DNA of 44,152 nt, from the NCBI GenBank assembly GCA_024228575.1, contig JAAETH010000310.1, forward strand, positions 1-44,152. The letters run 5' to 3'. The stretch is from Actinomycetes bacterium (GTDB taxonomy: Bacteria > Actinomycetota > Acidimicrobiia > Acidimicrobiales > Poriferisodalaceae). Under the pieces are notes generated by a model. It was not told where the DNA came from. It did no database searches and saw only the letters and a program-made list of their open reading frames with translations. Positions within the stretch are counted from its first letter, which is position 1; each line of letters opens with the position of its first letter. Both the position numbers and the translations under genes were made by a program. Shown here piece by piece: positions 4,939-21,300 of the stretch.

Positions 4939-6579
4939 CTAGCGGTCGGCTTCGCGATCGGAGGACTTGATGGAGACAGCGAGCCGTCTCCACTCGGGCC
5001 GCCTGCGGCTGTCGGCTGCTGTTTCGGAGAGTCTGAACGCCCAGTTGTGTGATCCCACCGTGCCCGGCTGGTTGATGCGGTCCTCGAGCCCGAACAGGTC
5101 GGTGATCATGACGGCTGCGTACCTCGACCGGCTTGCCATCAGGGCATCGATGAGTGCCCATCGCTCCTGGTCTCCGAACGGGCCGTTCGGCTCGATATCG
5201 CCGAAGGCGGCCAGGCGTTGCCACAGCTCGGCTGCCTCGATCGCGTCGTCGGTGTCGGTGACGTTGGTCGAGCGCTCTGCGAGGTCTAGCCACAGGCTTG
5301 CCAGTGGGTCGTGATCGTGGGTCGCGTATGTGGCGAACGTGCACTCGTCGATCTCGTCGGGCGAGATCACCTTGCCATCGTCGTCGGCGTCCCAATGGGG
5401 AATGCGAAAGCCCGCCACGTCGAGCGAGGTCATGTGGGGTCTGACGTAGTCGGGGACAACACCGAGGTCTTCACCGACGACCTGCGCTCCGCCGGCAGCG
5501 TCGATGACCATCTTCAGTCTGTGGTCGCCGTCGGCTCGGTTCGCGTCGCGGTTCGTCTCGAGATCGTCGGGGCGTGGAACCCAGCGCGGTAACACGCCAC
5601 CGGTTCGTTCGGCTGCTTCGGCCCCCGTCAAGGCGAGGAACTGCTCGTTGAACTGGGGGAGCCACGGGAAGGCGTAGATGCGGTAGAGCCCAAGAATGTG
5701 ATCGATTCGAAACACATGGAAGATGTCGGTCAGTTTCTGGATCCGTCGGCGCCACCACGGATAGTCCTCCGAGCGCATCTTCGCCCAGTCGTAGAGCGGG
5801 ATTCCCCAGTTCTGACCCCACCGCCGGATGAACTCATCGTGTTTGAACATGGTCTCGGGAGGTGCACCACCACACCATTCGAGGTCGAAGTCGTCGCGCT
5901 GGAAGAAGACATCGGCCGAGTATCTTCCGATGCCGATCGGTATGTCGCCCATGAGCTGGACGCCTCGTTCGTCGGCGAACCGACGAACTGCGAGCCACTG
6001 TCCAAAACACAACCACTGGACCCAAGCGAAGAATTCCGTGAGATCGCTGTGTTCGGCAGCGCACGCTCGAGCCTCGGTCGGGTCGTGAACCTCGTCTGGC
6101 CACTCGTCCCAGATGGCGGAGCCGAACACCTCGACCAGCGTTCGGAAGTTGGCGTAGTCGTCGAGCCAGGCGGCTTCGGCTCGTCGGAACCGGTCGAACT
6201 CGTGGTGAAGCCCCGGTTCGGCCTGGGGCCAGCGTTTCCACGCGCTGTCGAGGAGGCGCCGCTTCCTGCGACGTACCTCGTCGTAGTCGACGGGTCCCGG
6301 TGACACCTCGGCCGTCGCTGCTGCAACCTCGGAGGGATCGATCCCGGGGACCTCTTCCATCGCCAGATAGAGCGGCTCGAGAGCAACCGACGAGAGTGCG
6401 TCGTAGGGGCTGTCGTCAGAGCCCACCTCGTTGATGGGAAGGAGCTGGAGAAGCCCGACCGCGTGGTCGGCGGCCAACGCGATCCACTCGATGAGAGCCC
6501 GGGTGTCCCCGATGCCGAGATCCGCGTCGCGACGGGTTGTGAAGGCGGGTATGACAAGTCCGGCGAGTCGTCGGCTCAT
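4939..6579 (-). CDS. malQ: 4-alpha-glucanotransferase (amylomaltase, GH77)
   Basis: 546 aa. It carries GH77-like blocks ('GDIPIGIGRYSADVF', 'HILGLYRIYAFPW', 'HDHDPL'). Size and layout match MalQ. Confidence 0.85.
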   Translation of the reverse strand: MSRRLAGLVIPAFTTRRDADLGIGDTRALIEWIALAADHAVGLLQLLPINEVGSDDSPYDALSSVALEPLYLAMEEVPGIDPSEVAAATAEVSPGPVDYDEVRRRKRRLLDSAWKRWPQAEPGLHHEFDRFRRAEAAWLDDYANFRTLVEVFGSAIWDEWPDEVHDPTEARACAAEHSDLTEFFAWVQWLCFGQWLAVRRFADERGVQLMGDIPIGIGRYSADVFFQRDDFDLEWCGGAPPETMFKHDEFIRRWGQNWGIPLYDWAKMRSEDYPWWRRRIQKLTDIFHVFRIDHILGLYRIYAFPWLPQFNEQFLALTGAEAAERTGGVLPRWVPRPDDLETNRDANRADGDHRLKMVIDAAGGAQVVGEDLGVVPDYVRPHMTSLDVAGFRIPHWDADDDGKVISPDEIDECTFATYATHDHDPLASLWLDLAERSTNVTDTDDAIEAAELWQRLAAFGDIEPNGPFGDQERWALIDALMASRSRYAAVMITDLFGLEDRINQPGTVGSHNWAFRLSETAADSRRRPEWRRLAVSIKSSDREADR

Positions 6580-6715
6580 GGCCTGGCTCGCTCACCGCTG
6601 ACACATCCTGTCCCTGGTGATGAAGACATCGCTTCGAGCGTACGCCATCAGCCGAGCGAATCTGCGTGGCTCTCCGCTATGGTCGCAGCGTTGGGAGTCA
6701 GCCTGGGAGGGTGCT

Positions 6716-8569
6716 TTGACCTATCAGCTCGGTGTAGATCTTGGCACTACATACACCTCGGCCGCGATCCGGCGCGATGGGCGCACACGCATATTCGAGC
6801 TGGGCAATCGCACCTCGACGATTCCGTCGGTCATCTACCTGGGAGAAGACGGGACGGTCCTTACCGGCGAGGCCGCCAATCGCCGAGGGGTCACCGAACC
6901 GAACCGGGTGGTCCGCGAGTTCAAGAGACGCATCGGCGACCCGACACCGATCCTCCTGGGCGGTACCCCCTATTCAGCCGAGGCATTGTCGGCGAAGCTG
7001 CTCAGCTGGGTTATCGAGCGGGTCAGCGAACGCGAGGGTTCGCACCCCGGCCGGGTTGCTGTGACACACCCGGCGAACTGGGGTCCGTACAAGCTCGACT
7101 TGCTCGAGCAAGCAGTGCGCATGGCCAACCTCGAAGATGTTGTCACGCTCACCGAGCCCGAGGCCGCCGCCATCCATTACGCGAGCATGGAGCGCATCGA
7201 TCCCGGGATGATCGTGGCTGTGTTCGACCTGGGTGGGGGCACCTTCGACGCAGCGACTTTGAAGAAGACCGAGGCTGGTTTCGAGTTCCTCGGTCGTCCC
7301 GAGGGCATTGAACGCCTCGGTGGTATCGATTTCGATGAGGCGGTGTTCGGATTTGTAGGACGGTCTCTCGGAGGTGCCCTTCAAGAACTCGACCCTACCG
7401 ATCCGACCGCTCTCGCAGCTGTGGCGCGCCTTCGAGCCGAGTGTGTGGAGGCAAAAGAAGCGCTTTCGGGCGACACCGAGGCGGCAATCCCCGTCGTGCT
7501 GCCGAACGTTCAGACCGAGGTCCGCCTCACTCGCGGCGAGTTCGAGCAACTGATCCGACCCAGCCTCGCCGACGCTATCTCGGCGATGCGCCGCGCAGTG
7601 CGAACCGCCGATCTCGAGATGGAACAAATCGATCTGGTTCTTCTCGTCGGCGGTAGCAGCCGCATACCGCTGATCGGCCAAATGGTCGGTGGCGAGCTGG
7701 GCCGCCCCATCGCCATCGATGCACACCCGAAACACTCGGTCGCACTCGGGGCTGCCAGGGCGGCTGCCGACGAGGGCGCAACCCACCCGGTCAGCGTCGA
7801 AGATACGGGTGCAGCCGTTGCGGCCGTTGTACCCCCCGAACCGATTGCGCCCTCTGAAGCGGTTGCGCCTTCCGAACCGGTTGTGCCTTCCGAACCAATC
7901 GTTCCCGCCGCCGCTGCAGCCCCGTTGGACCATACGGCTACAACACCACCGGATGGTCCAAACAAGGGCCTGCTCATCGGTATCGCTGTGGTGGTCATCG
8001 TCGCCATCATCGCTGGGGTGGTGTTCCTGGGCGGAGGCGGCGATTCAGGCGACGATGAGATCGTGGCTGGCGAATCGCCCTTCACCGTTGACGAAGACAC
8101 GTCGACAACGGCTGCGGCTGTCACAACGACCGTGGTCGAGGTCACCACCACAGAGGCGACCACAACGACCGAGGCCGAGATCACCACAACGACCGAACCT
8201 CCGTTCGTGTGCCTCGGATTCTGTTCGGTCATCGAGGAGATCGATGTGGTCGACGGCGAGCTGAGCGTGACATGGACGGCCCACAATTTCTCGCCAGATG
8301 TCGGCAACATCCACGTGCACTTCTTCTTCGACGTGTTCCGGCCGTCGCAGGTCGGTTTGAACTTCGATTCCTGGGGTGAGACGGTCAGGGGATCCTGGGA
8401 TCTGACCGATCAGATTCCGTACTCGACGGCCGGAACGTCGCTGTCGATGAGCAATGTGCCGTCCGGGGCCACCCAGCTGTGTGTGACCCCGACCGATTCG
8501 CAGCACGGTGTCCTCGACCCTGAAAAGTTCGACTGTGTCGACATTCCGGCCGAGTTCGTTCCCGGCTGA
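6716..8569 (+). CDS. Hsp70-family ATPase, membrane-anchored, with Pro/Thr-rich linker and C-terminal extracytoplasmic domain
   Basis: N-terminal actin-like ATPase motifs of Hsp70 ('GVDLGTTYTSAA', 'VFDLGGGTFDAATL'). Then a PSEP/AVP repeat linker, one strong TM helix (LLIGIAVVVIVAIIAGVVFLGG), a Thr-rich acidic stretch and a Cys-containing ~150-aa C-terminal domain. The track ORF begins at 6617, but a GGGAGG Shine-Dalgarno at 6705-6710 followed by TTG at 6716 aligns with the Hsp70 N-terminus, so the start is placed at 6716. Confidence 0.8.
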   Translation: MTYQLGVDLGTTYTSAAIRRDGRTRIFELGNRTSTIPSVIYLGEDGTVLTGEAANRRGVTEPNRVVREFKRRIGDPTPILLGGTPYSAEALSAKLLSWVIERVSEREGSHPGRVAVTHPANWGPYKLDLLEQAVRMANLEDVVTLTEPEAAAIHYASMERIDPGMIVAVFDLGGGTFDAATLKKTEAGFEFLGRPEGIERLGGIDFDEAVFGFVGRSLGGALQELDPTDPTALAAVARLRAECVEAKEALSGDTEAAIPVVLPNVQTEVRLTRGEFEQLIRPSLADAISAMRRAVRTADLEMEQIDLVLLVGGSSRIPLIGQMVGGELGRPIAIDAHPKHSVALGAARAAADEGATHPVSVEDTGAAVAAVVPPEPIAPSEAVAPSEPVVPSEPIVPAAAAAPLDHTATTPPDGPNKGLLIGIAVVVIVAIIAGVVFLGGGGDSGDDEIVAGESPFTVDEDTSTTAAAVTTTVVEVTTTEATTTTEAEITTTTEPPFVCLGFCSVIEEIDVVDGELSVTWTAHNFSPDVGNIHVHFFFDVFRPSQVGLNFDSWGETVRGSWDLTDQIPYSTAGTSLSMSNVPSGATQLCVTPTDSQHGVLDPEKFDCVDIPAEFVPG

Positions 8570-8653
8570 CCACCTAGTGTGAGATCGGCCCGCCTCAGCG
8601 TGGGGGTGACGGTGGTGGACGAGCGGCTCGGCGATCGGTGAGACACGTTCAGC

Positions 8654-11269
8654 GTGCAAGCGGCTCGTCGTTGCGCGAAGATCACCACGATGCGTGAGGA
8701 TCTGGATCTCGATCATCTTTGCGCTCCCGGCCGATCGGGGTGGGTCGTCATTGGCAAGGGGGGCGCAGGCAAGACGGCTGCCCTGCGGGCGATCGCGGCG
8801 GCGAGCGGTTCGTCGAAGCCAACGCGATGGATCAGGGGCGGGAGGCTCGCGACATCCGAACCATACGAGTCCCTCGAGGCGGTATTGCCCTTCGATGTCC
8901 TGGAGAAACTCCTCGAAGGTGGAACACGACTGGCCCGGCTGAAGGCCCAGAGAGCACTATTGGGCGGGCTCGAAACCGACGGAATCCTCGTGGTCGACGA
9001 TGCCCAGTGGTTGGATCCAGAGACCCTGGGTCTGTTGGCCGGGTTGGCCGAGTCGCGTGAATCGCTCGGACTCGAGATGGTCGTGGGCCACCGCCCGCGA
9101 CTGGACCGAAACCACCTTGCTCATCTCGACTCGATCCTGACCTTCGGTCATCCTGCGGTGGTGTTGGGACATCTTGACGATGAATCGGCCCGTCGTTACG
9201 TCGCATCGGGTCCGCTCGGCGGCCTGGGACCCGTCGCAGTCGACCATGCTGTCGGTCGTTGCGGAGGAGTGACAGGCCTGATCGATCTCCTGGCCGACTC
9301 GTGTGACACCGATTCGTCGGCCCATGAAGCCTGGGTCGGGGGATCAGCTGCCCCACCTCATGTGACCGAGGGGGTCAGGTCGAAGGTGTCGCTGTTGTCC
9401 CAGGGTGCGAGGGAACTCCTGCTCGCGATGTGTTTCGGGGCATCGCCCAACGATGACCTGGTTGAGCAACTGGACGGTGTCGCCGACCACCGCGCCCTCG
9501 GTGCAGCGATGTTCGAGATCGACGACGAGGGGTTTCTCGACGCCGACGGGGCCGAACCGGTTCCCCTGATCGCCGTCGTCGTACCCGAACTCCAGCCGCC
9601 TACCGAGCGAAGCCGCTATCACCTGACGGTTGCATCGGCGCTGTCCGGGCGTTCGGACGCGGTGGTCGCCCGCGCCGAACACCTGCTCGCCGGCGGCGAA
9701 CACTCGGCGTTGGCGGTCGATGTGTTCTTGGCCGCATGTGACCATCTCGTCGACGATGCACCCGATCTCGCGGCGGAGTGGCTCGAGCGCGCCGAATCGG
9801 GCGGCGCTGATCGACTCGAGGTCGCCACTCGCCGTGTGGTGGTGAATGTGCGGCAGGGACGACCCCTCGAAGCTATTCGAGCCGCCGGGCCGCTGTTCCA
9901 GGATGGCAACCGGGTCGATGAGTTGTTTGCCGTCGCCAACGCCTACGTGGACGCGCGGCGCCCGTCGCAGGCAGCCGGTGCCCTGATGCCAATGTTGGCG
10001 GGTAGGCCGGGCGATGTCGGCGACATCGCACACATGTCGGCTGGGCTCTGTCGAGTGATCGCAGGCTCGCTCGACGACGACTACGACATCGTCACCGCTG
10101 CGCTGGGAAGCCGCCCGTTGGCCGATCCCCAGGCCGAGGTTGCCCGGTTGGTGGCGGTTTCGGTCTGCTTGCTGGGTACGGGTGAATGGATTGCTTCGCT
10201 TGCGAGCGCCGCCGATGCCAGCGCCCTCGAGCTGGCGGTGTTGCGCGAGCAGCGACTTCCTTTCTCCGCCAATTCGTTCGCAACCTGGCTTGGCCTGTAT
10301 GTAGGCGACCTCGGCTATTCGCGTCGAATCTGTGACCGCGCTCTCGCGGCGCCGTCGCGTACCGACGCCATCCGGCGCAGCCGGGTACTTCGAAGCGAGC
10401 TCGTGTCCGTGCTCGGAGGTGCGGTCAAGACGTCGATAGACCCTCTGGCGGACTGGTCCGATCTCGGGCCAGTGGACCGGCTGGTGTCGGTTGCGGTGGC
10501 CGCGGGCGCCGCTCGCCGCTCGAACGATATCTCTCGCCTGCATCAGCTACGGCCGCTTCTACACGAGGTCCTTCTGCAACCGCCCGACCTTCTCGGTCTG
10601 GCCGCGTACGGAGAAGTCATGGCGGGCGTGGCGAGGGTCGGCGATCTCGACGTTGCGGATGCTGCGTGTGTTGCGCGCGATCGGGCAATGGAGTTCTGTG
10701 TCCAGCAGCCGGTGCAGGTTCTTCTCGCGTGGATCGATCTGCAGGTCACTATCGCTGCCGACAGGAGGGAACGGTTGCCCGCACTAGTCGATCGACTCGA
10801 GTCCATCGGTCCGCTCGAAGGTCGGCCCGGTGAATTGGTCGCGGCCATGAAGGTGTGGTGCAGCTCGCTGCACGGCTCTGTAGACGCGCAGGCTGTGACG
10901 ACTGCCGGCGGAGCACTCCGCAATCTCGGCTATCGGTGGGAGGCGACACGTATTGTTGGGACGGCGGCGATGCATATCGACGACCAGGCGGCGGCCAAGA
11001 ACCTCCTGGCTGCAGCTCGCGAGATGAGGGCTGATCTGCGCGCAAGCGACGCAGCGCACGCCCCGTTGTCCGCGAAGTTGTCCGAACGCGAGATGGAGGT
11101 GGCCGCTCTCATCAGCGACGGCAACACCCACAAACAGGTCGGCGCCAAGCTGTTCATCTCGCCCAAGACGGTTGAACACCATGTCGCCCGCATACGCCAG
11201 AGGCTTGGGGTCTCATCGCGAGCAGAGATGCTCGAGCTGATCCGCGTCGAACTCGAAACGGCGAAATAG
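8654..11269 (+). CDS. LAL-family transcriptional regulator (N-terminal AAA/STAND ATPase + C-terminal LuxR HTH); IniR-like
   Basis: 871 aa. Walker A 'VIGKGGAGKTAAL' near the N-terminus, then a long helical/TPR-like middle. C-terminal LuxR-type HTH ('EREMEVAALISDGNTHKQVGAKLFISPKTVEHHVARIRQRLGV'). Same architecture and size class as M. tuberculosis IniR (Rv0339c). Start is ambiguous: GTG at 8654 or ATG at 8690. Confidence 0.85.
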   Translation: MQAARRCAKITTMREDLDLDHLCAPGRSGWVVIGKGGAGKTAALRAIAAASGSSKPTRWIRGGRLATSEPYESLEAVLPFDVLEKLLEGGTRLARLKAQRALLGGLETDGILVVDDAQWLDPETLGLLAGLAESRESLGLEMVVGHRPRLDRNHLAHLDSILTFGHPAVVLGHLDDESARRYVASGPLGGLGPVAVDHAVGRCGGVTGLIDLLADSCDTDSSAHEAWVGGSAAPPHVTEGVRSKVSLLSQGARELLLAMCFGASPNDDLVEQLDGVADHRALGAAMFEIDDEGFLDADGAEPVPLIAVVVPELQPPTERSRYHLTVASALSGRSDAVVARAEHLLAGGEHSALAVDVFLAACDHLVDDAPDLAAEWLERAESGGADRLEVATRRVVVNVRQGRPLEAIRAAGPLFQDGNRVDELFAVANAYVDARRPSQAAGALMPMLAGRPGDVGDIAHMSAGLCRVIAGSLDDDYDIVTAALGSRPLADPQAEVARLVAVSVCLLGTGEWIASLASAADASALELAVLREQRLPFSANSFATWLGLYVGDLGYSRRICDRALAAPSRTDAIRRSRVLRSELVSVLGGAVKTSIDPLADWSDLGPVDRLVSVAVAAGAARRSNDISRLHQLRPLLHEVLLQPPDLLGLAAYGEVMAGVARVGDLDVADAACVARDRAMEFCVQQPVQVLLAWIDLQVTIAADRRERLPALVDRLESIGPLEGRPGELVAAMKVWCSSLHGSVDAQAVTTAGGALRNLGYRWEATRIVGTAAMHIDDQAAAKNLLAAAREMRADLRASDAAHAPLSAKLSEREMEVAALISDGNTHKQVGAKLFISPKTVEHHVARIRQRLGVSSRAEMLELIRVELETAK

Positions 11270-11324
11270 AACCTCGCGCGCTGGGCCGGGGACACCTTTC
11301 GCCCGTCACGACTTCTCCCGTCGA

Positions 11325-12800
11325 CTAGACCTGGGCCGCACGCCCCGCCGCCAGCAGGCCTTCACACGTACGGGTGAGGATGCGCGCTGCTTCGATCGTT
11401 TCGCGGGGCATCAGGGGATTCTCGCCCAGACGCTGCCAGTAGGTGTGCTGGCCGATGGCCAATCTGGACAACTCGCCCGCCTCGGTGTTCTGGTCGGCCC
11501 CGAGCCGCTGATGAGCGAGCCCGCCATGAGTTCCGAGCAAACGTTCGGCCCTTTCGGCATCTGGTTCGGACATGTTCACGAATCCAGAGCGGATCGCATT
11601 CAGCAGCTGAACCTCTGCGAACTCGTGCACACTCGACATGATGCGCTCGAGCTCCACGTCGAATTCACGCGAGTTGACCCCGGGGACCGAGCTGACGACA
11701 CGGTCGAAGGTCAGCAGAGCAGATCTGGCCCTGAGAACGTCGCTGCGAGCCGTCAGATGGCTGTGGAGGATTCGTCGGAGTTCGCCGAGGCCGCTGCGAT
11801 CGACGAGCATGTTCGACAATTCGGTGCTGGTGGTGGCCCGTCCCTGGCGCAATAACACAAATGCCAGGCGAACGCCGAAGATGCCGAAGCGGTCTAGCAG
11901 TTCGGAGCGTTCGATCGGCGTGATTGGCAGATCGGTCTCCGCGTTGACAAACCTGTCGACGGTCAACATCAGAGGATCGACCGCTGATCGGTCAGCCTCT
12001 GCAAGCATCAGGAGGACGCGGAACTCGTCCTGGCGCAGGGTTCCGGCGGTTTCGGCGAGTAGTCCGGCTACTGGTATGACGGTTTGACACAGCCGCTTGA
12101 TCTTCGGGTCGGCTCCATAACGCTTCGATATCCGCCGCGCCGACGCGAGTGCATCCAGCCTGCCGACACCGATCTCGTCGGCCCTCGACAAGATGCCGAT
12201 CGAGTTGATGGCACTCGGCCTCGATGTTTCCTGGTCGTGGAACGCTTCGAGGAATCGGACGTCGCTAGCGTGCAGGTGCCGCATCAGGTACAACACAGCG
12301 TCGGTCGTGCTCGCTCCATCGTCTGGTGTGAGGAAGTCGCGGGTCCGGTCCGAGAGGTGTGTGCTGATCGAATCGATACCAGGCGTGTCGATGAGGGTCA
12401 CATCGGACAGAGCCGTCGATGGCCACTCGATTTCGAGGCGTTCGATCTGGTCGGTCGGGGTGCCTCTCAGATCGATGTTCAGCGAACCCTCCTCGCGGGT
12501 GAACGGCAGCTGAGCTGGATCGCCGGCATGAGGGTGCATCGTGACCCGATAGGTCGACCCGTCGCGGTACCAGGTGACCACCGTGGTGCACTCGCCAGCG
12601 TCGGTCGGGGCCAACCGTTCGCTCACGAGGGCGTTCAACAGTGTGGACTTTCCTGCCTTCACCTTGCCGGCGATGGCAACCCGAAGCGGCTGGTCGAGTC
12701 GCCGTTTTGCCTCGTCGATCTGTTGTTGGGCTCCCGTGCCCGCCACGAGGCGCGAAGCCAAACCAGCGAGCATCGACAGCTCATCGCTCAGGACCGTCAT
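11325..12800 (-). CDS. Dynamin-family GTPase, IniC-like
   Basis: 491 aa. G1 'IAGKVKAGKSTLLNAL' and 'LAPTDAGECTTVVTWY' follow the IniC-type N-terminal pattern, with G3 'DTPGIDS'. Size matches IniC (about 490 aa). It is the last gene of the ini-like operon. Confidence 0.85.
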   Translation of the reverse strand: MTVLSDELSMLAGLASRLVAGTGAQQQIDEAKRRLDQPLRVAIAGKVKAGKSTLLNALVSERLAPTDAGECTTVVTWYRDGSTYRVTMHPHAGDPAQLPFTREEGSLNIDLRGTPTDQIERLEIEWPSTALSDVTLIDTPGIDSISTHLSDRTRDFLTPDDGASTTDAVLYLMRHLHASDVRFLEAFHDQETSRPSAINSIGILSRADEIGVGRLDALASARRISKRYGADPKIKRLCQTVIPVAGLLAETAGTLRQDEFRVLLMLAEADRSAVDPLMLTVDRFVNAETDLPITPIERSELLDRFGIFGVRLAFVLLRQGRATTSTELSNMLVDRSGLGELRRILHSHLTARSDVLRARSALLTFDRVVSSVPGVNSREFDVELERIMSSVHEFAEVQLLNAIRSGFVNMSEPDAERAERLLGTHGGLAHQRLGADQNTEAGELSRLAIGQHTYWQRLGENPLMPRETIEAARILTRTCEGLLAAGRAAQV

Positions 12801-12812
12801 CGCAGCACCCGC

Positions 12813-12914
12813 GCCTTCTGGCCGGCCCTTTGGGCCGTCTCCGTGCGGCTGTGTCTTGGTCTCGCCTTCTGGCCGGCCCTTTGGGCCGTCTCCGTGCGGC
12901 TCGGTCGTGGCCGG
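12813..12914. repeat. 51-bp tandem direct repeat (2 copies) in the iniA-like/iniC-like intergenic region, each unit containing a small GGCCC-TTT-GGGCC hairpin
   Basis: gccttctggccggccctttgggccgtctccgtgcggct occurs at 12813 and again at 12864, a 38-nt perfect match with diverged 13-nt tails. The repeat fills the 115-bp gap between the two dynamin genes. Confidence 0.8.
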
Positions 12915-12915
12915 T

Positions 12916-14739
12916 TCATGACAGGACCTCTACCGAGGCCTTGAGGATGCGCTCGAGCTGATCGATCGAAGCATCGAGCTTCTTGATCTTCTCCTTGCGT
13001 TTGGCCTGGCCGGTCTTCAGCGCGACCTGGGTTGCCTTCAGCGACTCTGTGGCCGTTGTGGCCAGCTCCCTGGCCCTTTCGAGGTTCGTATCGCGCAGAT
13101 CTCTCTGGACCTGGCGAAGGGTGTCACGGCTGTGTTTCGTCACGCCGAAGACAACCTCATCGAGGTACTTCTTGATGCCCATCTTGGCTTGCTGGCGGCG
13201 CATCGTGAGCTGGCGTTCGCGCTCCTCCTTGGCGGCCTTGCGGCCCAGCAAACCCCCGACCGCCAGGCTGATGGGCCCGAAGGTAGCCAGTCCGACCAGC
13301 GAACCGAGCATGCCGAACATCAACATGCCGCCATAGCTCCCACGCATGCCCGTGAGCATCGACTGGGCATAGGAAGGAGCTTCGGCAACCTCGACGTCTA
13401 GGGTCTTTCGCCCGGCGAGGACCTCGTCGGGGGTTGCGACCTTCACGTCGGCGATGGCATCGAGCTCGAACACGTCGAGTACACGTTCCGACAACTCGAG
13501 GGCATCGCGTCGAAGGAGATGGTAGTTCTCGGCGATGTCTGCCATCAGCCGTTCCTCGACCATCGGGAAGAGCTCGTCGCCGATCTTGGCCGGATCGTTC
13601 TCGTCGATGAGCACATCGATCTCTGCGACGAGGGTCCGGGTTCGTGTCTTCAGGTCGTGGTCGGTGTTCGATGTCAGGTCAGAGATGCCGTCGTTGAGGA
13701 CAACCTGCCACCGCGATGCAGCGGCCTTCATGTTCTCGGCTCGCTCCTTGGCCTCCCGAGCCTTGGTCTCGAGTTCCTCTCGGCTCGCGGGGTCGGCAAG
13801 TACGTCTCGCATCGTGGTCTCGGTGTCGAGCAGCTGGCCGGCGACTGCTCTGACGTCCGTCATCGCTGCAGTGACGTGGATTGTCTCTGCCTCGGCGAGG
13901 ATCTTCTGTTCGACGCGCTCGACCAGGGCGGGGAAACCACTCTCGTCGTGCATCTCGGGGTCGTTCAGGTCGAGAGCCTTGGTTCGAAGTGGCGAGGCAA
14001 CAGCAAAGATGTCGATTTCGAGACCGGCGTTCGCGAGGTGTTGCTCGTTGAGTTCGAGGATCTTCCTCCAGCGCGGGTAGACATCGATCTTGCTCATGGC
14101 GCAGATGACGTTGGGGCAGCGTTCGTATGCGATGACCAGGAACTCGAGCTCGCTCGCTGTCAATTCCTGAGAGCTGTCGGTGACGAAGACAACAGCGTCG
14201 GTCATGGCCAGAGCGCCCATGGTCGCCTTGCCATGGGCCGACTCGAGGCCTCCGACGCCAGGGGTGTCGACCACACGCAACCCGGCTCGCAGGATCCGGC
14301 GGGGAATCCTGACCTCGACGGTGTGCACCTTCTGGTTGGTGCCTGCAATGTGACCCGAGACCACGAAGGCGGCCGCGTCGTTCAGCTTGATCTCGTGACG
14401 TACATCCTCGTCGGAGCCTTCGGGGCCGGCACAGGTGATCGAAGCTTCGGAGTGTTCGGCGTAGCCGATGACGGTTGCGACGGCCGTGGCCACGTCGTCG
14501 TCGACGGGACATACTGGCGCCTTCACCAGGGCGTTGACCAGGCTCGACTTCCCCTGCTTGAACTCGCCGATGACCAGGACGGTGACCTCGGGTTCGGCGA
14601 GTCGAGCTGTTGTGGTCCTGAGTCTTGTCACGAGGTCTGCGCGTTCGAGGCGGGTGGCTGCACCCTTGACAGCCTCGACGATTTCGGTGGCTCGATTGCG
14701 TCTTGATGTCTGCTGTTCGGTGTTCACATCTACGTCCAT
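12916..14739 (-). CDS. Dynamin-family GTPase, IniA-like (bacterial dynamin-like protein with membrane paddle)
   Basis: G1 'VIGEFKQGKSSLVNAL' and G3 'VVDTPGVGG'. A long helical stalk follows, with a hydrophobic hairpin near the C-terminus (MLMFGMLGSLVGLATFGPISLAVGGLLG). The track ORF extends to 14925, but those first 62 codons overlap the upstream gene, are low-complexity, and sit upstream of a hairpin/U-tract. The ATG at 14739 is therefore preferred. Confidence 0.85.
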   Translation of the reverse strand: MDVDVNTEQQTSRRNRATEIVEAVKGAATRLERADLVTRLRTTTARLAEPEVTVLVIGEFKQGKSSLVNALVKAPVCPVDDDVATAVATVIGYAEHSEASITCAGPEGSDEDVRHEIKLNDAAAFVVSGHIAGTNQKVHTVEVRIPRRILRAGLRVVDTPGVGGLESAHGKATMGALAMTDAVVFVTDSSQELTASELEFLVIAYERCPNVICAMSKIDVYPRWRKILELNEQHLANAGLEIDIFAVASPLRTKALDLNDPEMHDESGFPALVERVEQKILAEAETIHVTAAMTDVRAVAGQLLDTETTMRDVLADPASREELETKAREAKERAENMKAAASRWQVVLNDGISDLTSNTDHDLKTRTRTLVAEIDVLIDENDPAKIGDELFPMVEERLMADIAENYHLLRRDALELSERVLDVFELDAIADVKVATPDEVLAGRKTLDVEVAEAPSYAQSMLTGMRGSYGGMLMFGMLGSLVGLATFGPISLAVGGLLGRKAAKEERERQLTMRRQQAKMGIKKYLDEVVFGVTKHSRDTLRQVQRDLRDTNLERARELATTATESLKATQVALKTGQAKRKEKIKKLDASIDQLERILKASVEVLS

Positions 14740-14740
14740 G

Positions 14741-14784
14741 AAAAGAGAGAACTCGGGTCCCGACCGGTGGCCGGGACCCGAGTT
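14741..14784 (-). terminator. Intrinsic terminator/attenuator-like hairpin + U-tract between the iniB-like and iniA-like genes
   Basis: The minus-strand RNA would read ACUCGGGUCCCG-GCCACCGGU-CGGGACCCGAGU. That is a perfect 12-13 bp GC-rich stem with a 9-nt loop, followed immediately by UUCUCUCUUUU and then the ATG of the iniA-like gene. Confidence 0.55.
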
Positions 14785-14812
14785 TGTCGCTAAGTCGGGT
14801 TGGAAATCCAGC

Positions 14813-16462
14813 TCAGTCGAGGATCTCCACGTCGCCAGTGTCGAAGTTGGCTTCTTCGGTGACGTCGACACTGTCGGCGACCGCAGTGCCGAAGTCCTCG
14901 GACAACGCCGAGCCGTGGTCAGCAACGTTCGAATCGTCGATCGTCGTGAGATCGGTGTCGATCTCGGTGCTGATGTCGGTGTCGATCTCGGTGTTGATGT
15001 CGGTGTCGTTGTCCTCGAGGACGTCGTTGTCTTCGATGGTGGTGGTGTCGTTGTCCTCGAGGACGTCGTTGTCTTCGATGGTTGTGGTGTCGTTGTCTTC
15101 GATGGTTGTGGTGTCGTTGTCCTCGAGGGTTGTGGTTGTGGTGTCGTTGTCCTCGATGGTGGTCGTGGTGGTGTCGTTGTCCTCGTTCGTCGTCTCGACG
15201 TCGGTGACGGTCTGGTCGCCCTGGAGGTTCAGGTTCAGGTCGTCGCCGCTCGAGATGTCGCCGATGCTGAGGTCGGTCTGGTCGCCGGCGCCCGTGTTGA
15301 CATTGCCTTCGCTGTCGATGGCGTCGCCACCAGCTGCCTGGGAACCGTCGGTGGCGGTGATGTTGCCGTCGCCGACCACTGTGGTTCCGCTGCCACCGCT
15401 GGCGTCGACCTGGGTGACCTCGGAGCCGTCGGTTGCGACGGTGGCGTCGCCACCGCTGGCGTCGATATCGGTCACCTCCGAACCGTTGGTTGCCACGTTG
15501 CCGTCGCCGGTGTTGGTGGTCATGTCGCCGCCAACCTCGCCGGTGTTGGTGCCTGTGACATCGCCGTCGCCGCTGTTGACCACGCCGTCGACATCGCCGG
15601 TCACCGTTCCACCGGACACATCACCTTGGACGACCGTCGAGCCGATCACCTCACCGGTGATCGCACCCTCGACTGGGCCGTCGGCTGCGATGGCGCCGTC
15701 GGTTGCGATGTTCGAGTCCTCGACTTCGGCGTTCTCGCCTACCTGAACCGCTCCATCGCCCGCTGTTTGGATGTCGTTCTCGACGTCGAAGTTCTTGGCG
15801 CTCACATCGCCGTCGATGTTTGTGCTGGCGTCGATGTTTGTGTCGCGATCGTCGACGTTGTTGACCGTGCTCTGGTCGATGTGGTTGGTGACGTTCGTGA
15901 CGTAGTAGGTGATCTGTTGCGACATCGCCTCGACAGGGTCGGTGGCGTCGACAACCGGGGGAGCCGGAGGAGGCGTCGGTGCTGCAGTCGGAGCGGGTGC
16001 AGGAGCAGGAGCAGGTGCGGGGCTCGAGACCGGACCTGTGGTGGTCGGCGATGCAGCGATGCCGGCATCGACCTGGCTGACGCCACCGATATCGCCGCCG
16101 GCGACGTTGGTGTCGCCCTCGACGGCTTGGTTGATGACCGGGCCCGACTGGACCGTGGTGTCGGCAACGTCGACACCCTGATCGGCGGCGTTGGAAACGG
16201 CCGCCGCCTGGTTCGTCGCCGTGGTCATGTCCATGTCGTTTGACGAGGTTGTGACCGGAGCCAGCATGCTTGCCTGCTCGGGAGGAAGCTCTTCGCTCAT
16301 CAGCGTTACAGCTTCGTGCAGGTCTTCGGGGGTCAGGTCGTCGAGGCCGTCTTGGACCAGCATCTCCTGCCGGCCGTCGGCGTCGGCTTCTGCCCAGGCC
16401 TGCTGCTTTTCTCCGAACATGATGTCGTAGAGCTTGTCGAAGATCATGGTGTCATCCGCCAT
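14813..16462 (-). CDS. Highly acidic Asp/Thr/Gly/Val-rich tandem-repeat protein in the IniB position (IniB-like by context only)
   Basis: Start ATG at 16462 is preceded by AAAGAGG (the track ORF starts at 16519). A short N-terminal segment 'MADDTMIFDKLYDIMFGEKQQAW' and an APAPAPAP linker lead into about 400 aa of low complexity with octapeptide repeats (IEDNDTTT/LEDNDTTT, IDTDISTE). It is the first gene of the operon, followed by two dynamins, as in iniB-iniA-iniC. Composition differs from the Gly/Ala-rich M. tuberculosis IniB, so this is a positional analogue only. Confidence 0.6.
   Translation of the reverse strand: MADDTMIFDKLYDIMFGEKQQAWAEADADGRQEMLVQDGLDDLTPEDLHEAVTLMSEELPPEQASMLAPVTTSSNDMDMTTATNQAAAVSNAADQGVDVADTTVQSGPVINQAVEGDTNVAGGDIGGVSQVDAGIAASPTTTGPVSSPAPAPAPAPAPTAAPTPPPAPPVVDATDPVEAMSQQITYYVTNVTNHIDQSTVNNVDDRDTNIDASTNIDGDVSAKNFDVENDIQTAGDGAVQVGENAEVEDSNIATDGAIAADGPVEGAITGEVIGSTVVQGDVSGGTVTGDVDGVVNSGDGDVTGTNTGEVGGDMTTNTGDGNVATNGSEVTDIDASGGDATVATDGSEVTQVDASGGSGTTVVGDGNITATDGSQAAGGDAIDSEGNVNTGAGDQTDLSIGDISSGDDLNLNLQGDQTVTDVETTNEDNDTTTTTIEDNDTTTTTLEDNDTTTIEDNDTTTIEDNDVLEDNDTTTIEDNDVLEDNDTDINTEIDTDISTEIDTDLTTIDDSNVADHGSALSEDFGTAVADSVDVTEEANFDTGDVEILD
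14935..15190. repeat. Intragenic tandem repeats (21/24/42-bp units) encoding octapeptide repeats of the acidic IniB-like protein
   Basis: Near-identical units are visible directly (gtcgttgtcctcgaggacgtcgttgtcttcgatggtKgtggtgtcgttgtc...). They encode IEDNDTTT/LEDNDTTT repeats on the minus strand. A second array (ggtgtcgatctcggtgYtgat) encodes the IDTDISTE repeats. Confidence 0.85.
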
Positions 16463-16703
16463 TGTCGTGCCTCTTTCGTGCTTCTCGGCGCCCGGCGCCG
16501 TGTTGTTGTGCATCCACACCGTTGTTGGTGTGTGACATCAACGTACGGAGAATCCGATCCGAGGTCATCGGGGAGAATCCACCCTTGTCGTCGGGTAGGT
16601 GGGAGCCCGATCCCCCTAGGCGTCGATGGGGGATTGGGCGATGCCCCGTAGGGGGTTCGGGGGGTGCTTGGGGGACAACCCCTCGCCGGACCCACCGTTG
16701 TGG
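16463..16703 (-). promoter_or_regulatory. Promoter/operator region of the ini-like operon: palindromes, GGAGAATCC direct repeat and a G-run cluster
   Basis: A 240-bp non-coding gap between the CBS gene stop and the iniB-like start. Contains CACACC-N6-GGTGTG, GGAGAATCC twice about 30 bp apart, and ATCCCCC-N11-GGGGGAT. Plus-strand G-runs: GGGGG-N3-GGG-N12-GGGGG-N3-GGGGGG-N5-GGGGG (about 16617-16672). Confidence 0.45.
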
Positions 16704-17117
16704 TCACTGTTCGGTGGTGTCGACGATGTAGCGGGCCAGGTCGGTGGTCGTGACGATGCCGGCGAGCCGGTCCTCGTCGAGAACAACGATCGAGTGGAAG
16801 GTGCCCTGAGACAAGATGATTGCGGCATCGCGCACCGAGGACGTCGCCGAAATCGATTGAAGGCCCACCGACATCGCGTCTTCGATGGTGTAGTACTCGT
16901 CGATCGTGTTCCGGAGAGGTCCGTCGATCTCGAACTCCATGTCGTGGAGCAACCGGACCAGATCTGTGGTCGAGAGCATCCCGACCGGCTGATCGTTCTC
17001 AGTGACGACGAGGTGGTGGTACGGGGCTGATTCGAGGGCAGACATCGCGGCGGAAAGCGGATCGGCTCTGTCGATTGTGGTCGGATCGACCGTCATGATC
17101 TTCTTGACTGGTGTCAT
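16704..17117 (-). CDS. CBS-domain pair protein (standalone)
   Basis: Two CBS-like repeats ('IMTVDPTTI...HHLVVTENDQPVGMLSTTDLV' and 'YTIEDAMS...HSIVVLDEDRLAGIVTTTDLARY'). The track ORF starts further upstream in Arg/Ser-rich low-complexity sequence, so the internal M ('MTPVKKIM') is preferred as start. Exact start is uncertain by a few nt. Confidence 0.7.
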   Translation of the reverse strand: MTPVKKIMTVDPTTIDRADPLSAAMSALESAPYHHLVVTENDQPVGMLSTTDLVRLLHDMEFEIDGPLRNTIDEYYTIEDAMSVGLQSISATSSVRDAAIILSQGTFHSIVVLDEDRLAGIVTTTDLARYIVDTTEQ

Positions 17118-17193
17118 CGGGCAAATCCTAGGCGAACCCTTCGGGGTCGGAGACCGTTCGTCGCAGGCACCCCGAGCACATCGGGCTCGGTTG

Positions 17194-17403
17194 TCAGGAT
17201 TTGGTCTTTTCAGCGGTGCTGAACTCGAACAGTCGGTACAACGGGCAGAACCCGACAGCGCCCGTGACGAGAGCGATGAGGCCCACGATTCCGAGAAGCG
17301 CGCCGAGCGTTCCGCCAACCGCGACAAATCCGACGATGATCAGCACGATGCCAAGCACCGTGCGGGCGATTCGTTCTGTATTCGCCTCGTTGATCTTCAT
17401 CAT
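17194..17403 (-). CDS. DUF2892 (YgaP-like) small membrane protein
   Basis: 69 aa 'MMKINEANTERIARTVLGIVLIIVGF...GFCPLYRLF', the typical DUF2892 signature with two TM helices. A perfect AAGGAGG Shine-Dalgarno lies 5 nt upstream of the ATG. The longer track ORF to 17658 is low-complexity upstream sequence. Confidence 0.65.
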   Translation of the reverse strand: MMKINEANTERIARTVLGIVLIIVGFVAVGGTLGALLGIVGLIALVTGAVGFCPLYRLFEFSTAEKTKS

Positions 17404-17488
17404 TCCTCCTTGTACTTCTTCTTGTGTCCATTGTGCTGATTGGACCAACGGAATATCGAGAACTTCTTGTCGGACCGACCGCCGCACG

Positions 17489-18280
17489 CTACTTCGACGT
17501 CCAGCCGCCGTCGACTGTGATCGTCTGTCCGGTGATGTAGCTTCCCAAATCGGTCGCCAACAGCAGTAGGGCACCGTCGAGTTCACCCTCGATGCCGGCT
17601 CGGCGAAGGTACGTTCCGCTCTCGATGTAGCGTCTCCCGCCAGCGGCGGCTTCGCCATGGAACATCAGGTGGGTCAATTCGGTCTCGAAGTAACCCGGCG
17701 CGATCGTGTTGACCCTGATCGAGTGCCGAGCCCATTGAGCCGCCAACTCCTTGGTGAGGGTGTGAATGGCTCCCTTCGAGGCGACGTAGGCGGCCTGATG
17801 GTTCGGCGAAGCTGACACGAAGCCGTGCACCGACCCGATGTTGACGATGCTCCCACCGGTTCCTCGTTCGATCATCCTCGTCGCAGTCATCGCAGCCAGC
17901 ACGAAACATGCGTTGAGGTTCACATCGACCACACGCCTGAACACGGCTGGGTCCTCGTCCTCGGCCCTTGTCACAGCGTCGGACGAACCGGCGTTGTTGA
18001 CCAGGACGGCGAGGTCTCCGGGAAGGCTGCTTGCGAATTCGACGACGTCGCTCAACTGATCGTCGCAAGATACGTCGCACTGGGTTGCCACGATTCCATC
18101 GACCTCGGAGGCGAGCTGCTCGAGACGGTCCAGACGCCGGGCACAAGCCACGACCGTGGCTCCGGCATCGGCGAGAACTCTTGAGAAGCGCTCACCAAAT
18201 CCGCTGGATGCGCCCGTGACGATTGCAACCTTGCCGTCGAGGCGCGAGCTGGGTATCGGGGTGTCGTGCAGGGATGGCAT
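17489..18280 (-). CDS. Short-chain dehydrogenase/reductase (SDR) family oxidoreductase
   Basis: 'GKVAIVTGASSGFG' Rossmann motif and 'NNAG'. A YxxxK-region equivalent is present ('AAYVASKGA'). Start taken at the internal ATG (MPSLHD...), 28 nt downstream of the giant ATPase stop. Confidence 0.85.
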   Translation of the reverse strand: MPSLHDTPIPSSRLDGKVAIVTGASSGFGERFSRVLADAGATVVACARRLDRLEQLASEVDGIVATQCDVSCDDQLSDVVEFASSLPGDLAVLVNNAGSSDAVTRAEDEDPAVFRRVVDVNLNACFVLAAMTATRMIERGTGGSIVNIGSVHGFVSASPNHQAAYVASKGAIHTLTKELAAQWARHSIRVNTIAPGYFETELTHLMFHGEAAAGGRRYIESGTYLRRAGIEGELDGALLLLATDLGSYITGQTITVDGGWTSK

Positions 18281-18308: not shown

Positions 18309-21300
18309 TCATTGTCGGCCGAGGGCGTCGGCAATTCGACCCAGCGCTGCAACGACGTCGGCCGCGGGGTCGGCCGTTGCCCTGGCGAAGTTCGCCTTGA
18401 TCGCCTTCCAGCGCTTCTCATCTGTCGCGTCGAGGGTTCCTCGAAGGGCAGCCAGGGCCAGCAGGTTCTGCTCGGCCCTGTCGGTCAACGTCTGGGCTTC
18501 GGACGCGTAGTGATCGTCGATGACGGCCGCCAGTTCATCGTCGGTCATGGCCGGAACGATTCGCGACGATATTCGAGCCATGTTGCGGTACGAACCTTGG
18601 AGAAGGAACGGGGGAGCTTCCCGATCGGCGTCGGCGCTCGCGGCCGAGTCGACGTAGGCGTCGTTGACCTGCATGACCACGGTTGCGGCTCGATCGAGCA
18701 ACTCGAGAACCCGAACGGTCTCATCGAGCTCGGAGGAATCCCACCGATGATCGAGTCCATCGGAGCTGACGGCTCTGCGTCCGCGCGACATGGCGACCAT
18801 CACCTCGACATCGTCGATCAGTTTCGTCGACCTGGGGGCAATCGCTGGGCAGGCGGTCACGCTGTTCTCGAGATACGACAGTGCGAATTCGGCGGCGTGT
18901 TCGTCGGCGACATCGCCGAGGTTGTACACGTCGGCACGGTTCACGAGCATGTCGGGCAACTCGAACCGCGAACCGGCGGTCGAGTAGGGGTTGCCGGCCA
19001 TGACGATGGCGAATCGTTTGCTACGCAGATCGTAGGTGCGGGCTTGTCCGGCGTGTACTCCCTCGATGCGACGGGTTGCGTCGGCGAGCGGGATGAAGCG
19101 AGACAGGAACTCGGGATTCGTGAATTGGATGTCGTCGATGAACAACACGACATTGCGAGCCATCGCCAGTGCCAGGTTGACCTTCTCCACCTCGGCCCTG
19201 GCCGTTGCGTTGGGGGCGTCGGCGGGATCGAGCGATGTTGTGGCGAAACCGAGAGCGGGGCCGTTCACCTTCACCATCAGCAACCCAAGGCGTGCTGCCA
19301 TCCAAGACATGAGGGTCGTCTTGCCGTAGCCGGGGGGTGAGGTCAGGACCAGGAGCCCCGACCGACTGAGGTCGTTCGAGTCGACGGTACCCAGCTGCCG
19401 AGCCAGGTTGGCGCCGACGAGGGGAAGGAGCGTGCGGTCGATCAGGCGGTTGCGAACAAAACCGGCCATCACCACCGGCCGGTGAGAGTCGAGATCGATG
19501 TCGTCGCGGACCGCTGAAGTCACGCCACGGCGCAGTTCCTGATACGCAGGCCATCGGGTGGCCATCTCGTCGAAGAGCGGGCCGACCCGTGCCGCCAACT
19601 CGTCCAGCCGAACCGAGATCTGCCCCTGGATGATGTGGCGGTGGTCGCTGACCAGACCACTTGCTGTCACGGCTCCCGAAGTCGGCTGTTCGAAGTGGGC
19701 GATGCCCGGGGTGGCGAGGATTGCGGCAGCCTCGTCGACATCGAAGTCGAGGCGTGCGAGCCGGGGATTGGCTGCGACAAAAGCGCTGAGCCACTCGGCG
19801 AGGTGGGTGTAGCGCTCGTAGAGGTCGGTGCTGTCGATCGATGTGAGGACAACATCACGAATCCGAGACTCGACCGAAGTCTCGAACTCGTCGACCAGCT
19901 CGATGGCCGTCGATGTTGCCGGCAATAGCCCGTCGGTGGGACGGAGTTGGTCGCAGATGTAGCCAGCGGCCACCCTGCAGTCGCGGCGCGACAGAGTCGG
20001 GACGATGTTGGCGAGGTCTTGGGACACCGTTCTCTGCAGACGGTCCGACACCGTGTGGGCGTCGAAGGAGTCGAGAGCGACTCGGGCGGCCTGTACACCG
20101 GCCCCCAGCGCCTGCCGCTGCTGATCGTCGAGTTCGCTGAGAAACAGGCGACCGATGGCCCGCGCGGAACCTGGATAGCCGACACCGTCGGTGCTGCCAG
20201 TCGTCAACAGGGCGGTCAAGAGAACGGCGGCATCGTGATCGTGAACCCCGATCTCGTACCCCTCACCGTGTCGACGCTCGGCGTGTGAGCGAACTCGTTC
20301 GGCGATGTGTTCGGGTATGGCAGCTGCGCTACGCAGTTCTGACACCTTCGACCCAGAAGCGGCATCGTGGTAGACCGCCCAGGCGAGATACTCACATCTG
20401 GCGACCTCTTGTGATTCCGACGGGTAGGAGCGGTTCAGCAGGTCGGCAAATTCCGACAGCTCGTCCGTGACGTCGACCGAGAGATCGGTTCCTGTGATAT
20501 CGACACTCACGCGCCCATTTGATGTCGACATCACGGTCTCGAAGGGTTGGTGATTGGGTGCGAATCGAAACGGGCCGAACCTCAGGGCTCCGTCGTCGTC
20601 GCTGAGGTCCGAGCGATCGCGGACAGTACGACGGGCGGCTTCGGCTCCGGCTCGGAGGGCATTCTTGAGCTCGGCGGCCTGACCCGATTCGCCCAGCTCG
20701 TCCAACTCGCCGGCCAGATCGCGAACCCGGAGCACCATCTGATCGGCCGCGAATAGCGAGGCGACCTCTGCTTCGTCTTCTGCTTCCTCGGCGCGGCGCA
20801 GGATCGTGACGAGCAACCGCTCGCCCGCATCGACAAGTCGTTTGGTTCTCTGTGCCCTCTGATCGACGAGTTCGGAGCGACGTGAGCCGAAGACCTCGTT
20901 CATTCGGTCGCGCAATTCGATGATTCGGATCAGCCGGTCTGGGTCTTCTCCGTGGCGACTCTCGAGGCGTTCGGCGTTGACGAGAAGTCGAGCCAGCTCG
21001 GTGTCGACCTCGTCGGGAGTTGTGGTCGCCATGACCGCCCCCGACAGGGTCTGTTCGAGCAACGCCACCTCGGCGTCGAAGGCTTCTGCCGTTTCGTTGT
21101 CGGCCAGCTCGCGGCGCCTGGCTTCGAGCACAGCGCGCGACCTGTTCGACGCGGCTGTGATGTCGGCAACCCGGCGCACGATGCGGGTACGTGCGGTCGG
21201 ATCGACATTGTCGAGTGCCCCGACAGCGTCGACCACTGCGTCCAGATCTGACGTCACGACCGCCAACCGCGCGGCCGTCTCGGCGACCACCCCGGCCGTC

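Follow-up and report, generated by a model that had tools for sequence, protein, structure and literature searches.

A remote iniBAC/IniR-type module with a conserved Hsp70-like partner gene in an uncultured actinobacterium

Research on the iniBAC operon and its regulator IniR has dealt almost exclusively with their role as a drug-response circuit of mycobacteria. There, iniBAC has a dedicated activator in IniR, and iniR is divergent from the operon, with the small iniB* gene between them (PMC5760070). IniA of M. smegmatis mediates membrane fission that depends on GTP (PMC6715688), vesicle release involves both IniA and IniC (PMC10240201), and IniB is seemingly made in stoichiometric excess (PMC5760070). 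Boot et al. (2017) left one point open: sensing seemingly occurs outside the cytoplasmic membrane, yet IniR is cytoplasmic. Here, we compare this system with a locus on the contig JAAETH010000310.1 (44,152 bp, G+C ~63%; the whole stretch is called the window in the following). The contig belongs to a metagenome-assembled genome (MAG) labelled 'Actinomycetia bacterium' in GenBank (locus tags GY925/GY708), and its nearest relatives carry the label Acidimicrobiales. An earlier reading of the sequence, the original prediction, had proposed an iniBAC-like operon with an IniR-like LAL regulator in tail-to-tail arrangement. The operon is supported by our analysis, which adds an Hsp70-like membrane protein as a conserved component. 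We consider it probable that the window holds a five-gene ini membrane/envelope-stress module of the mycobacterial kind in a distantly related, uncultured marine actinobacterium.

Components of the ini-type locus

The window shares with mycobacterial iniBAC and IniR (Rv0339c/MMAR_0612, PMC5760070) an IniB N-terminal domain (IniB-N) protein, IniA, IniC and a STAND regulator of AAA+/sensor/LuxR architecture, and also the gene order iniB-iniA-iniC. The open reading frames (ORFs) are located where the original prediction had placed them, i.e., at 8654-11269 (+), 11325-12800 (-), 12916-14925 (-) and 14813-16519 (-), and iniB-iniA-iniC would constitute one minus-strand operon. The LAL and both GTPases are identical to the GenBank proteins MCP4959999.1, MCP4960000.1 and MCP4960001.1, which were deposited merely as 'hypothetical protein' or 'GTP-binding protein'. 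Two of the proposed sizes needed revision. While the 491 aa of the smaller dynamin-like protein are correct, the 669 aa of the larger one derive from an over-extended ORF that reaches 14925, and the annotated protein has 607 aa. Likewise, the regulator contains the expected AAA_16 and GerE/LuxR domains, but its annotated length is 859 aa (NCBI start 8690; P0001/P0412) instead of the 871 aa of the ORF.

The 607-aa protein (MCP4960001.1; 12916-14739 (-), start ATG 14739) is recognized by Pfam Dynamin_N with 73.2 bits (cut-off 27). In a phmmer comparison with M. smegmatis IniA (6J72_A) it reaches 377.5 bits (E 1.2e-111), with ORF residues 81-661 aligned to residues 6-589. The two proteins can be aligned from end to end, including the GTPase domain, the neck/trunk helices and the lipid-binding loop of the M. 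smegmatis structures (PDB 6J72/6J73, PMC6715688). The alignment also spans the hydrophobic membrane-inserting segment RGSYGGMLMFGML...GRKA (RGSYGG...GRKA), which the window protein keeps together with the GTPase domain. Their identity is about 40%, as judged by eye on the alignment. On the basis of this alignment, the 607-aa protein is an IniA orthologue over its full length. The 491-aa protein (MCP4960000.1, 'GTP-binding protein'; 11325-12800 (-)) is encoded 115 bp downstream of iniA and contains a Dynamin_N domain (50.8 bits). It scores only 37 bits against IniA 6J72 and matches the second dynamin-like protein after iniA at 350-520 bits in most of 85 loci; its sequence therefore identifies it as the IniC-position paralogue and the partner of IniA.

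The protein at the iniB position (14813-16462 (-)) comprises 549 aa from MADDTMIF, when the likely start ATG 16462 is used instead of the full ORF to 16519. The original prediction had described it as an unrelated-looking acidic repeat protein. Indeed, the curated IniB model NF038175 (threshold 40 bits) does not match it at E<=1, and a direct hmmscan against Pfam and NCBIfam retrieved nothing. The same model recognizes positional homologues in Blastococcus (62 bits) and Actinophytocola (59 bits) and, with 28.4 bits (E 1.2e-6), in locus L002, which has the convergent layout described below. We built an iterated IniB-N profile from NF038175-positive seeds, holding out the window and its closest orthologue L001, and searched the 8190 ORFs of all loci. 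The profile detects residues 18-84 of the window ORF with an E-value of 4.2e-7 in round 2 and 1.3e-11 at convergence. This IniB N-terminal domain is followed by a Pro/Ala linker, a 'TYYVTN...VDDRDT' block, an 'EDSNIATDGA' block and an acidic D/T/N/G-rich repeat tail (15.7% D, 14.4% T and 6.7% N; 121 D+E vs 5 K+R). The Pro-rich linker, the 'YxTN...VDDRDT' block and the acidic tail are common to the window protein and NF038175-positive IniB proteins, e.g., of Pseudonocardia, and all compared IniB-position proteins are strongly acidic, with 12-24% Asp and very few Lys/Arg. By its domain plan, the window protein is thus a typical non-mycobacterial member of the IniB family, and only its acidic D/T/N-rich tail departs from M. 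tuberculosis IniB, whose Gly/Ala-rich tail it does not share. The description as unrelated-looking is not upheld, given the profile match and the fact that acidic tails are normal in IniB proteins outside mycobacteria.

Some further features of the iniB genes were noted. Within the iniB-like gene, positions 14952-15508 contain several tandem-repeat arrays with periods of 24, 30, 42 and 57 bp and 83-96% matches, which encode IEDNDTTT-type repeats and whose length probably varies between strains. Many loci of the class Actinomycetes (L022, L023, L024, L035, L052 and others) contain two or three tandem IniB-N paralogues upstream of iniA, an arrangement that resembles mycobacterial iniB* plus iniB. 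In L012, L018 and L032, IniB-N genes adjoin the Hsp70-like gene downstream of iniC.

The regulator gene (8654-11269 (+)) encodes a LAL protein (MCP4959999.1) with an AAA+ nucleotide-binding oligomerization domain (NOD), a long α-solenoid sensor and a C-terminal LuxR helix-turn-helix (HTH) domain. GerE is detected with 56.6 bits, and AAA_16 with 30 bits (E 8.7e-7), which is below its cut-off of 32.6 bits. Both nucleotide-binding motifs are intact (Walker A GKGGAGKT, Walker B VVDDAQW), and the DD pair is invariant or nearly so across the alignment. At E<=1e-30, an exhaustive search yielded 108 cluster representatives, the majority of which are 760-900 aa long and can be aligned over most of their length. 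An AlphaFold (AF2) model built on 38 homologues (pLDDT 89.6, pTM 0.75) displays a P-loop NOD, a helical solenoid and a terminal HTH. In the PDB, Foldseek matches it to the STAND-TPR protein 6MFV (E 1.8e-7), MalT (8BOB_C, E 1.1e-5) and Avs3 (E 1.2e-4).

The NCBIfam model NF038181 served as the IniR reference in all comparisons; the word-indexed homologue searches had no mycobacterial sequences among their matches. NF038181 is the top NCBIfam match of the window LAL (112.2 bits, E 2.4e-32) and the sole one outside the HTH, but the match is split into two stretches and misses the equivalog cut-off of 750 bits, so that the protein is not filed as IniR proper. The ini-linked LALs constitute a graded, full-length series of 95-470 bits on this model, which runs from Arthrobacter (470), Blastococcus (452), L082 (448), L035 (431), Pseudonocardia (421), L053 (416) and Lentzea (402) over L019 (278), L002 (251) and P0008 (239) to L051 (123), L001 (117), P0003 (112) and P0013 (95). 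LALs of the class Actinomycetes thus reach 400-470 bits, in contrast to 112 bits for the window protein. None of five generic AAA_16/TPR/LuxR LALs, which were used as controls (among P0019-P0024), matches NF038181 at E<=1e-6. In a rough neighbour-joining (NJ) tree rooted on generic LALs, all ini-linked LALs group together, and the window LAL falls into a basal clade with P0003, L001, L021 and L036, all of which are convergent.

MalT of E. coli belongs to the same LAL/STAND class and shares with the window LAL the Walker A/B NOD, the helical solenoid sensor, the LuxR HTH and the fold matches 6MFV and 8BOB. In contrast, the sequence relation is limited to the HTH, for which the NCBIfam MalT model yields 20.9 bits, and the linked genes differ. 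From its sequence, the window LAL is thus best described as a remote member of an IniR-related LAL clade, which is neither a strict-equivalog IniR nor MalT. The original proposal that it is IniR-like and does not belong to a MalT or generic clade stands in so far as IniR is its sole full-length family match, generic LALs are not matched and its neighbours are ini genes. That it is an IniR orthologue responding to the same signal is not established, given 112 vs 750 bits.

Linkage, gene layout and the Hsp70-like membrane protein

The conservation of this arrangement was surveyed in 86 iniA loci by ORF calling, BLAST and a hidden Markov model of the LAL clade with a reach of 10 kb. A genome-collection scan with an IniA alignment contributed 80 further loci, which were its best ones and included no Mycobacterium; the sample is biased towards query-like IniA. 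An IniR-like LAL is present within 10 kb in 64 of the 86 loci. In 36 loci it is convergent and located downstream of iniC, mostly at a distance of 0-250 bp and in some cases overlapping. It is upstream and co-directional in 14 loci, upstream and divergent in 12 and downstream and co-directional in two, while no LAL was found in 22; for L034 and L044, where an over-extended ORF had caused an artefact, the assignment was corrected by hand. Among the convergent loci are many Pseudonocardia, Lentzea, one MAG labelled Mycobacteriales and Acidimicrobiia-type MAGs, and the layout occurs in basal as well as derived LAL clades of the NJ tree.

The window regulator is likewise convergent with iniC, and the predicted distance of 55 bp from stop to stop (11270-11324) was confirmed from the sequence. 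Its geometry differs, as predicted, from that of M. tuberculosis, with iniR divergent upstream and iniB* in between (PMC5760070), and the linkage of LAL and ini genes is kept. Nevertheless, the tail-to-tail layout does not represent a distinct evolutionary solution: no other layout is as frequent in this sample of related loci outside Mycobacterium (36 of 64 LAL-bearing loci). The finding as first stated is thus ordinary and, as basal and derived clades both contain the convergent layout, the mycobacterial one looks like one variant among several.

The linkage was also approached from the side of the regulator. Among seven LAL homologues whose contigs were read, five adjoin an iniA/iniC pair (L001-L005) and the remaining two (L086, L087) are convergent to small acidic proteins with an IniB-N domain, whereas no ini genes were detected near the generic LAL control L088. 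The 931-kb Acidimicrobiales contig L089 corresponds to the window gene for gene, with CBS, iniB, iniA, iniC, convergent LAL, Hsp70-like, GH77 and YjjI-like genes. The five-gene set is seen again in dozens of independent genomes and can thus not be attributed to chance; the identities of its components and their conserved linkage are direct observations. In L086 (6026-9639) and L087 (4833-8202), the IniR-like LAL and IniB-N genes occur without dynamin genes in the available flanks of these short contigs, which hints at the LAL/IniB pair as a possible, more tightly linked core of the module.

The original prediction had overlooked an Hsp70-like gene (6617-8569 (+)), which immediately precedes the LAL gene in the same orientation and probably starts with TTG 6716, as deduced from the L089 orthologue. 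It encodes a predicted membrane-anchored ATPase with an Hsp70/actin-fold nucleotide-binding domain (NBD, ~residues 36-385), a Pro/Ala linker, the transmembrane (TM) helix GLLIGIAVVVIVAIIAGVVFLGGGG, a Thr-rich linker and a C-terminal domain. Pfam HSP70 matches the NBD only (168 bits), and the NCBIfam models HscA/DnaK match in part. Homologues are present in 64 of the 86 ini loci, and a TM helix follows the NBD in at least 36 of 50 complete copies. The Hsp70-like protein is thus a conserved fifth member of the ini module and distinguishes it from the mycobacterial system as described. Neither an Hsp70-like partner nor ini/IniR synteny outside mycobacteria was reported in the literature searched, which was incomplete.

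The ini modules of other Actinomycetota (Pseudonocardia, Lentzea, Blastococcus, Arthrobacter and Acidimicrobiia MAGs; L001-L089) thus share with the window the five components, the acidic IniB tail, the TM-anchored Hsp70-like protein and, in 36 of 64 LAL-bearing loci, the convergent iniC/LAL pair. They differ in the position of the Hsp70-like gene, which is mostly divergent upstream of iniB. An Hsp70-like gene upstream of the LAL gene on the same strand is found in the window, L001 and L089 and also in L003, L004, L005 and L062; in the latter four the two genes are neighbours, but the LAL gene is not convergent with iniC. In L004 and L005 the Hsp70-like and LAL genes even overlap by 4 bp.

The C-terminal domain of the Hsp70-like protein (8186-8566 (+), ~115 aa) is predicted to be extracytoplasmic and is not matched by any Pfam family. 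Sequence comparison of ten Acidimicrobiia-type orthologues revealed an invariant HxH motif, a third His and two Cys residues. A single-sequence AF2 model of the domain is all-beta and of low confidence (pLDDT 56.8). The HxH...H motif and the Cys pair could provide a metal site with a disulfide.

Non-coding elements, possible mechanism and alternative explanations

The region 16463-16703 was confirmed as the intergenic region upstream of the iniB-position gene (-) and corresponds to its promoter region. Discrete blocks of this region can be aligned with the orthologous promoters of L089 and L001. The motif GGGGAT is present as an inverted pair at 16610-16615 (-) and 16629-16634 (+), and the promoter counts are 2/20 in the window (0.11 expected), 2/7 in L089 (0.08) and 6/11 in L001 (0.12). 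Further downstream follow a conserved block at 16583-16566 (-) with the sequence GGTGGATTCTCCCCGATG (elsewhere TCCCCGATG and TCCCCGAT), which abuts the -35 position in the three-way alignment, a -10-like TACGTT at 16545-16540 (-) and an inverted repeat CACACC/GGTGTG at 16532-16515 (-), located at the predicted mRNA 5' end. The GGGGAT boxes and the conserved promoter blocks are candidate operator elements that the LAL may bind, and several short boxes near -35 would suit cooperative binding in the style of MalT.

A second element is located between the iniB stop and the iniA start. The terminator scan and RNA folding detected a 16-bp GC-rich stem-loop at 14784-14750 (-), which is followed by a U-rich tract (-35.9 kcal/mol, z -4.2). 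Hairpins of other sequence occupy the same place in L089 (z -5.2) and L001 (z -3.2). The hairpin is a candidate intra-operon attenuator/partial terminator or 3' stabilizer that would lead to more IniB than IniA/IniC, in line with the remark on IniB excess in mycobacteria (PMC5760070).

These components can be combined into a putative mechanism. By analogy to IniR, the LAL would oligomerize upon a signal and switch on the operon by binding to GGGGAT-type boxes that adjoin the -35 position of the iniB promoter. The paired dynamin-like GTPases IniA and IniC would then remodel or repair the cytoplasmic membrane, as their mycobacterial counterparts suggest. IniB, with its conserved N-terminal domain and acidic tail, may serve as an abundant accessory protein, the message of which is probably raised above that of iniA/iniC by the hairpin. 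The Hsp70-like protein probably works with the regulator or the dynamins in sensing or control. Trehalose is doubtful as the signal, because the nearest relatives of the window are labelled Acidimicrobiales, which to our knowledge are not known to make mycolic acids.

Several observations weigh against such an IniR-like control of the operon. The LAL is a remote relative of IniR that falls far below the equivalog cut-off, its activating role is deduced by analogy, and the NJ tree that unites the ini-linked LALs is rough and has no support values. Although many of the 22 loci without a LAL in reach are on truncated contigs, several have ~9-10 kb on both sides, which indicates that the pair of dynamin-like proteins can occur where no LAL is linked to it. 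L089 and L001 contain perfect GGGGAT palindromes, whereas that of the window is degenerate. With up to three mismatches, the palindrome GATCCCCTAGGGGATC is absent from the window's own promoter and has a single match at 28126, i.e., at chance level, so that the operator proposal is based on the half-sites and the alignment only. Finally, a sigma-70 consensus scan of 6300-17500 did not find a promoter.

A more specific role can be envisaged for the Hsp70-like protein. MalT is controlled by MalK and MalY, and by analogy a partner protein could act on the LAL. The Hsp70-like protein might then provide IniR-type regulators with their missing envelope sensor, or with a partner switch, by relaying an extracytoplasmic signal to the cytoplasmic STAND ATPase, and if true, this would address the question of extracytoplasmic sensing by a cytoplasmic IniR (Boot et al. 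2017). We regard this as a speculative possibility with rather low odds. Another explanation of low probability is that the convergent, nearly abutting genes are regulatory in themselves. With no terminator in between, transcripts of the strongly induced iniBAC operon would extend antisense into the LAL gene and vice versa, and simple activation would be supplemented or replaced by transcriptional interference or negative feedback. On both strands, the 55-bp gap lacks a significant hairpin or terminator (RNA-fold z +0.6 and +1.8 vs shuffles), the iniC/LAL gap in related loci ranges from -36 (overlap) to ~+250 bp, with distances of 0-250 bp in many loci and overlapping stop regions of 4-36 bp in L002, L040, L050, L066 and L082, and deep LAL clades have retained the convergent layout. 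On the other hand, compact genomes often contain closely spaced convergent genes, Rho-dependent termination is invisible to the sequence folding and scans used, and the interference reading is purely inferential. Moreover, the linkage persists in other clades with divergent or co-directional layouts, and convergence is thus not required for function. As a secondary element of the sensor reading, the abutting 3' ends could add interference feedback.

Two other explanations would separate the window from the ini system altogether. Because E. coli MalT controls malPQ, the LAL could be a MalT-type sugar regulator of the neighbouring GH77/MalQ-like gene (4939-6579 (-)), with the dynamin genes being adjacent only incidentally. 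In both the window and L089, the GH77 gene and the Hsp70-like/LAL pair are divergently oriented, and the LAL fold matches MalT (8BOB_C). However, this adjacency is limited to the two closest genomes, L001 has other neighbours despite the same convergent layout, and LAL homologues in 64 loci of many genera track iniA/iniC or IniB-N and not GH77. The MalT model matches the HTH only, and MalT-like control of GH77 was rejected as highly improbable. Equally little probability is given to the possibility that the paired dynamins belong to an anti-phage 'Dynamins' defence system of the LeoABC type or to another GTPase/Hsp70 conflict system. PADLOC LeoA/LeoBC models produce weak matches to the IniA-like (77 and 73 bits) and IniC-like proteins (35 and 31 bits), and DO-GTPase conflict systems combine paired GTPases with Hsp70 proteins (PMC7159879). 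Yet the IniA-like protein reaches 377 bits over its full length to IniA vs 77 bits to LeoA, a difference that led us to reject the LeoABC assignment. The DO-GTPase/Hsp70 option was likewise rejected, as DO-GTPases are described as a separate TRAFAC family that is accompanied by a GAP1 partner and zinc ribbons (PMC7159879), while the ini module contains no additional gene that would qualify for a GAP1-like product. In addition, the gene content of the module is stable across Actinomycetota and devoid of variable effectors, and the window neighbourhood shows no mobile-element or defence-island features. 

Neighbouring genes and implications

The genes that surround the module are conserved to different extents. 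The gene that adjoins the iniB promoter on its upstream side (16704-17327 (-)) has the orientation of iniB and encodes a CBS-domain protein, as in L089, but its ORF may be over-extended (207 aa in the window vs 135 aa in L089). About 1.8 kb upstream of the iniB-like gene and again on the same strand, two overlapping genes (18309-25237 (-)) encode a 1612-aa ATPase with DUF3686, DUF7902 and AAA_5 domains and, upstream of it, a 697-aa SPFH/Band-7 (flotillin-like) protein. They represent a further membrane-associated ATPase pair beside the ini module, which is absent from the 10 kb upstream of iniA in L089. On the other side, the GH77 4-alpha-glucanotransferase gene is shared with L089 and not with L001; its adjacency is suggestive in view of the MalT-like fold and of trehalose, but is not conserved more widely. 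It is followed by a gene for a YjjI-like glycyl-radical enzyme (2728-4284 (-), 628 bits) and an ORF of 287 aa (1893-2756 (-)). In L089, the gene after the YjjI-like one encodes a radical-SAM/4Fe-4S protein, probably its activase, and the combination of a YjjI-like enzyme and its activase would point to an anaerobic capacity of the MAG.

With the window module, a known system gains a new, remote member whose layout is common, and the added value of its description is modest, consisting of the conserved Hsp70-like partner and the non-coding elements. In practical terms, the window genes deposited as 'hypothetical protein' or 'GTP-binding protein' can be renamed. For work on mycobacteria, the Hsp70-like TM partner, the hairpin after iniB as a possible source of IniB excess and the candidate operator boxes provide leads. 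In a wider context, our data suggest that iniBAC/IniR is a distant representative of an older and widespread actinobacterial membrane-stress module that reaches into lineages labelled Acidimicrobiales. The mycobacterial gene order would then be a derived variant, and the ancestral signal of the module is unlikely to be mycolate-derived trehalose.

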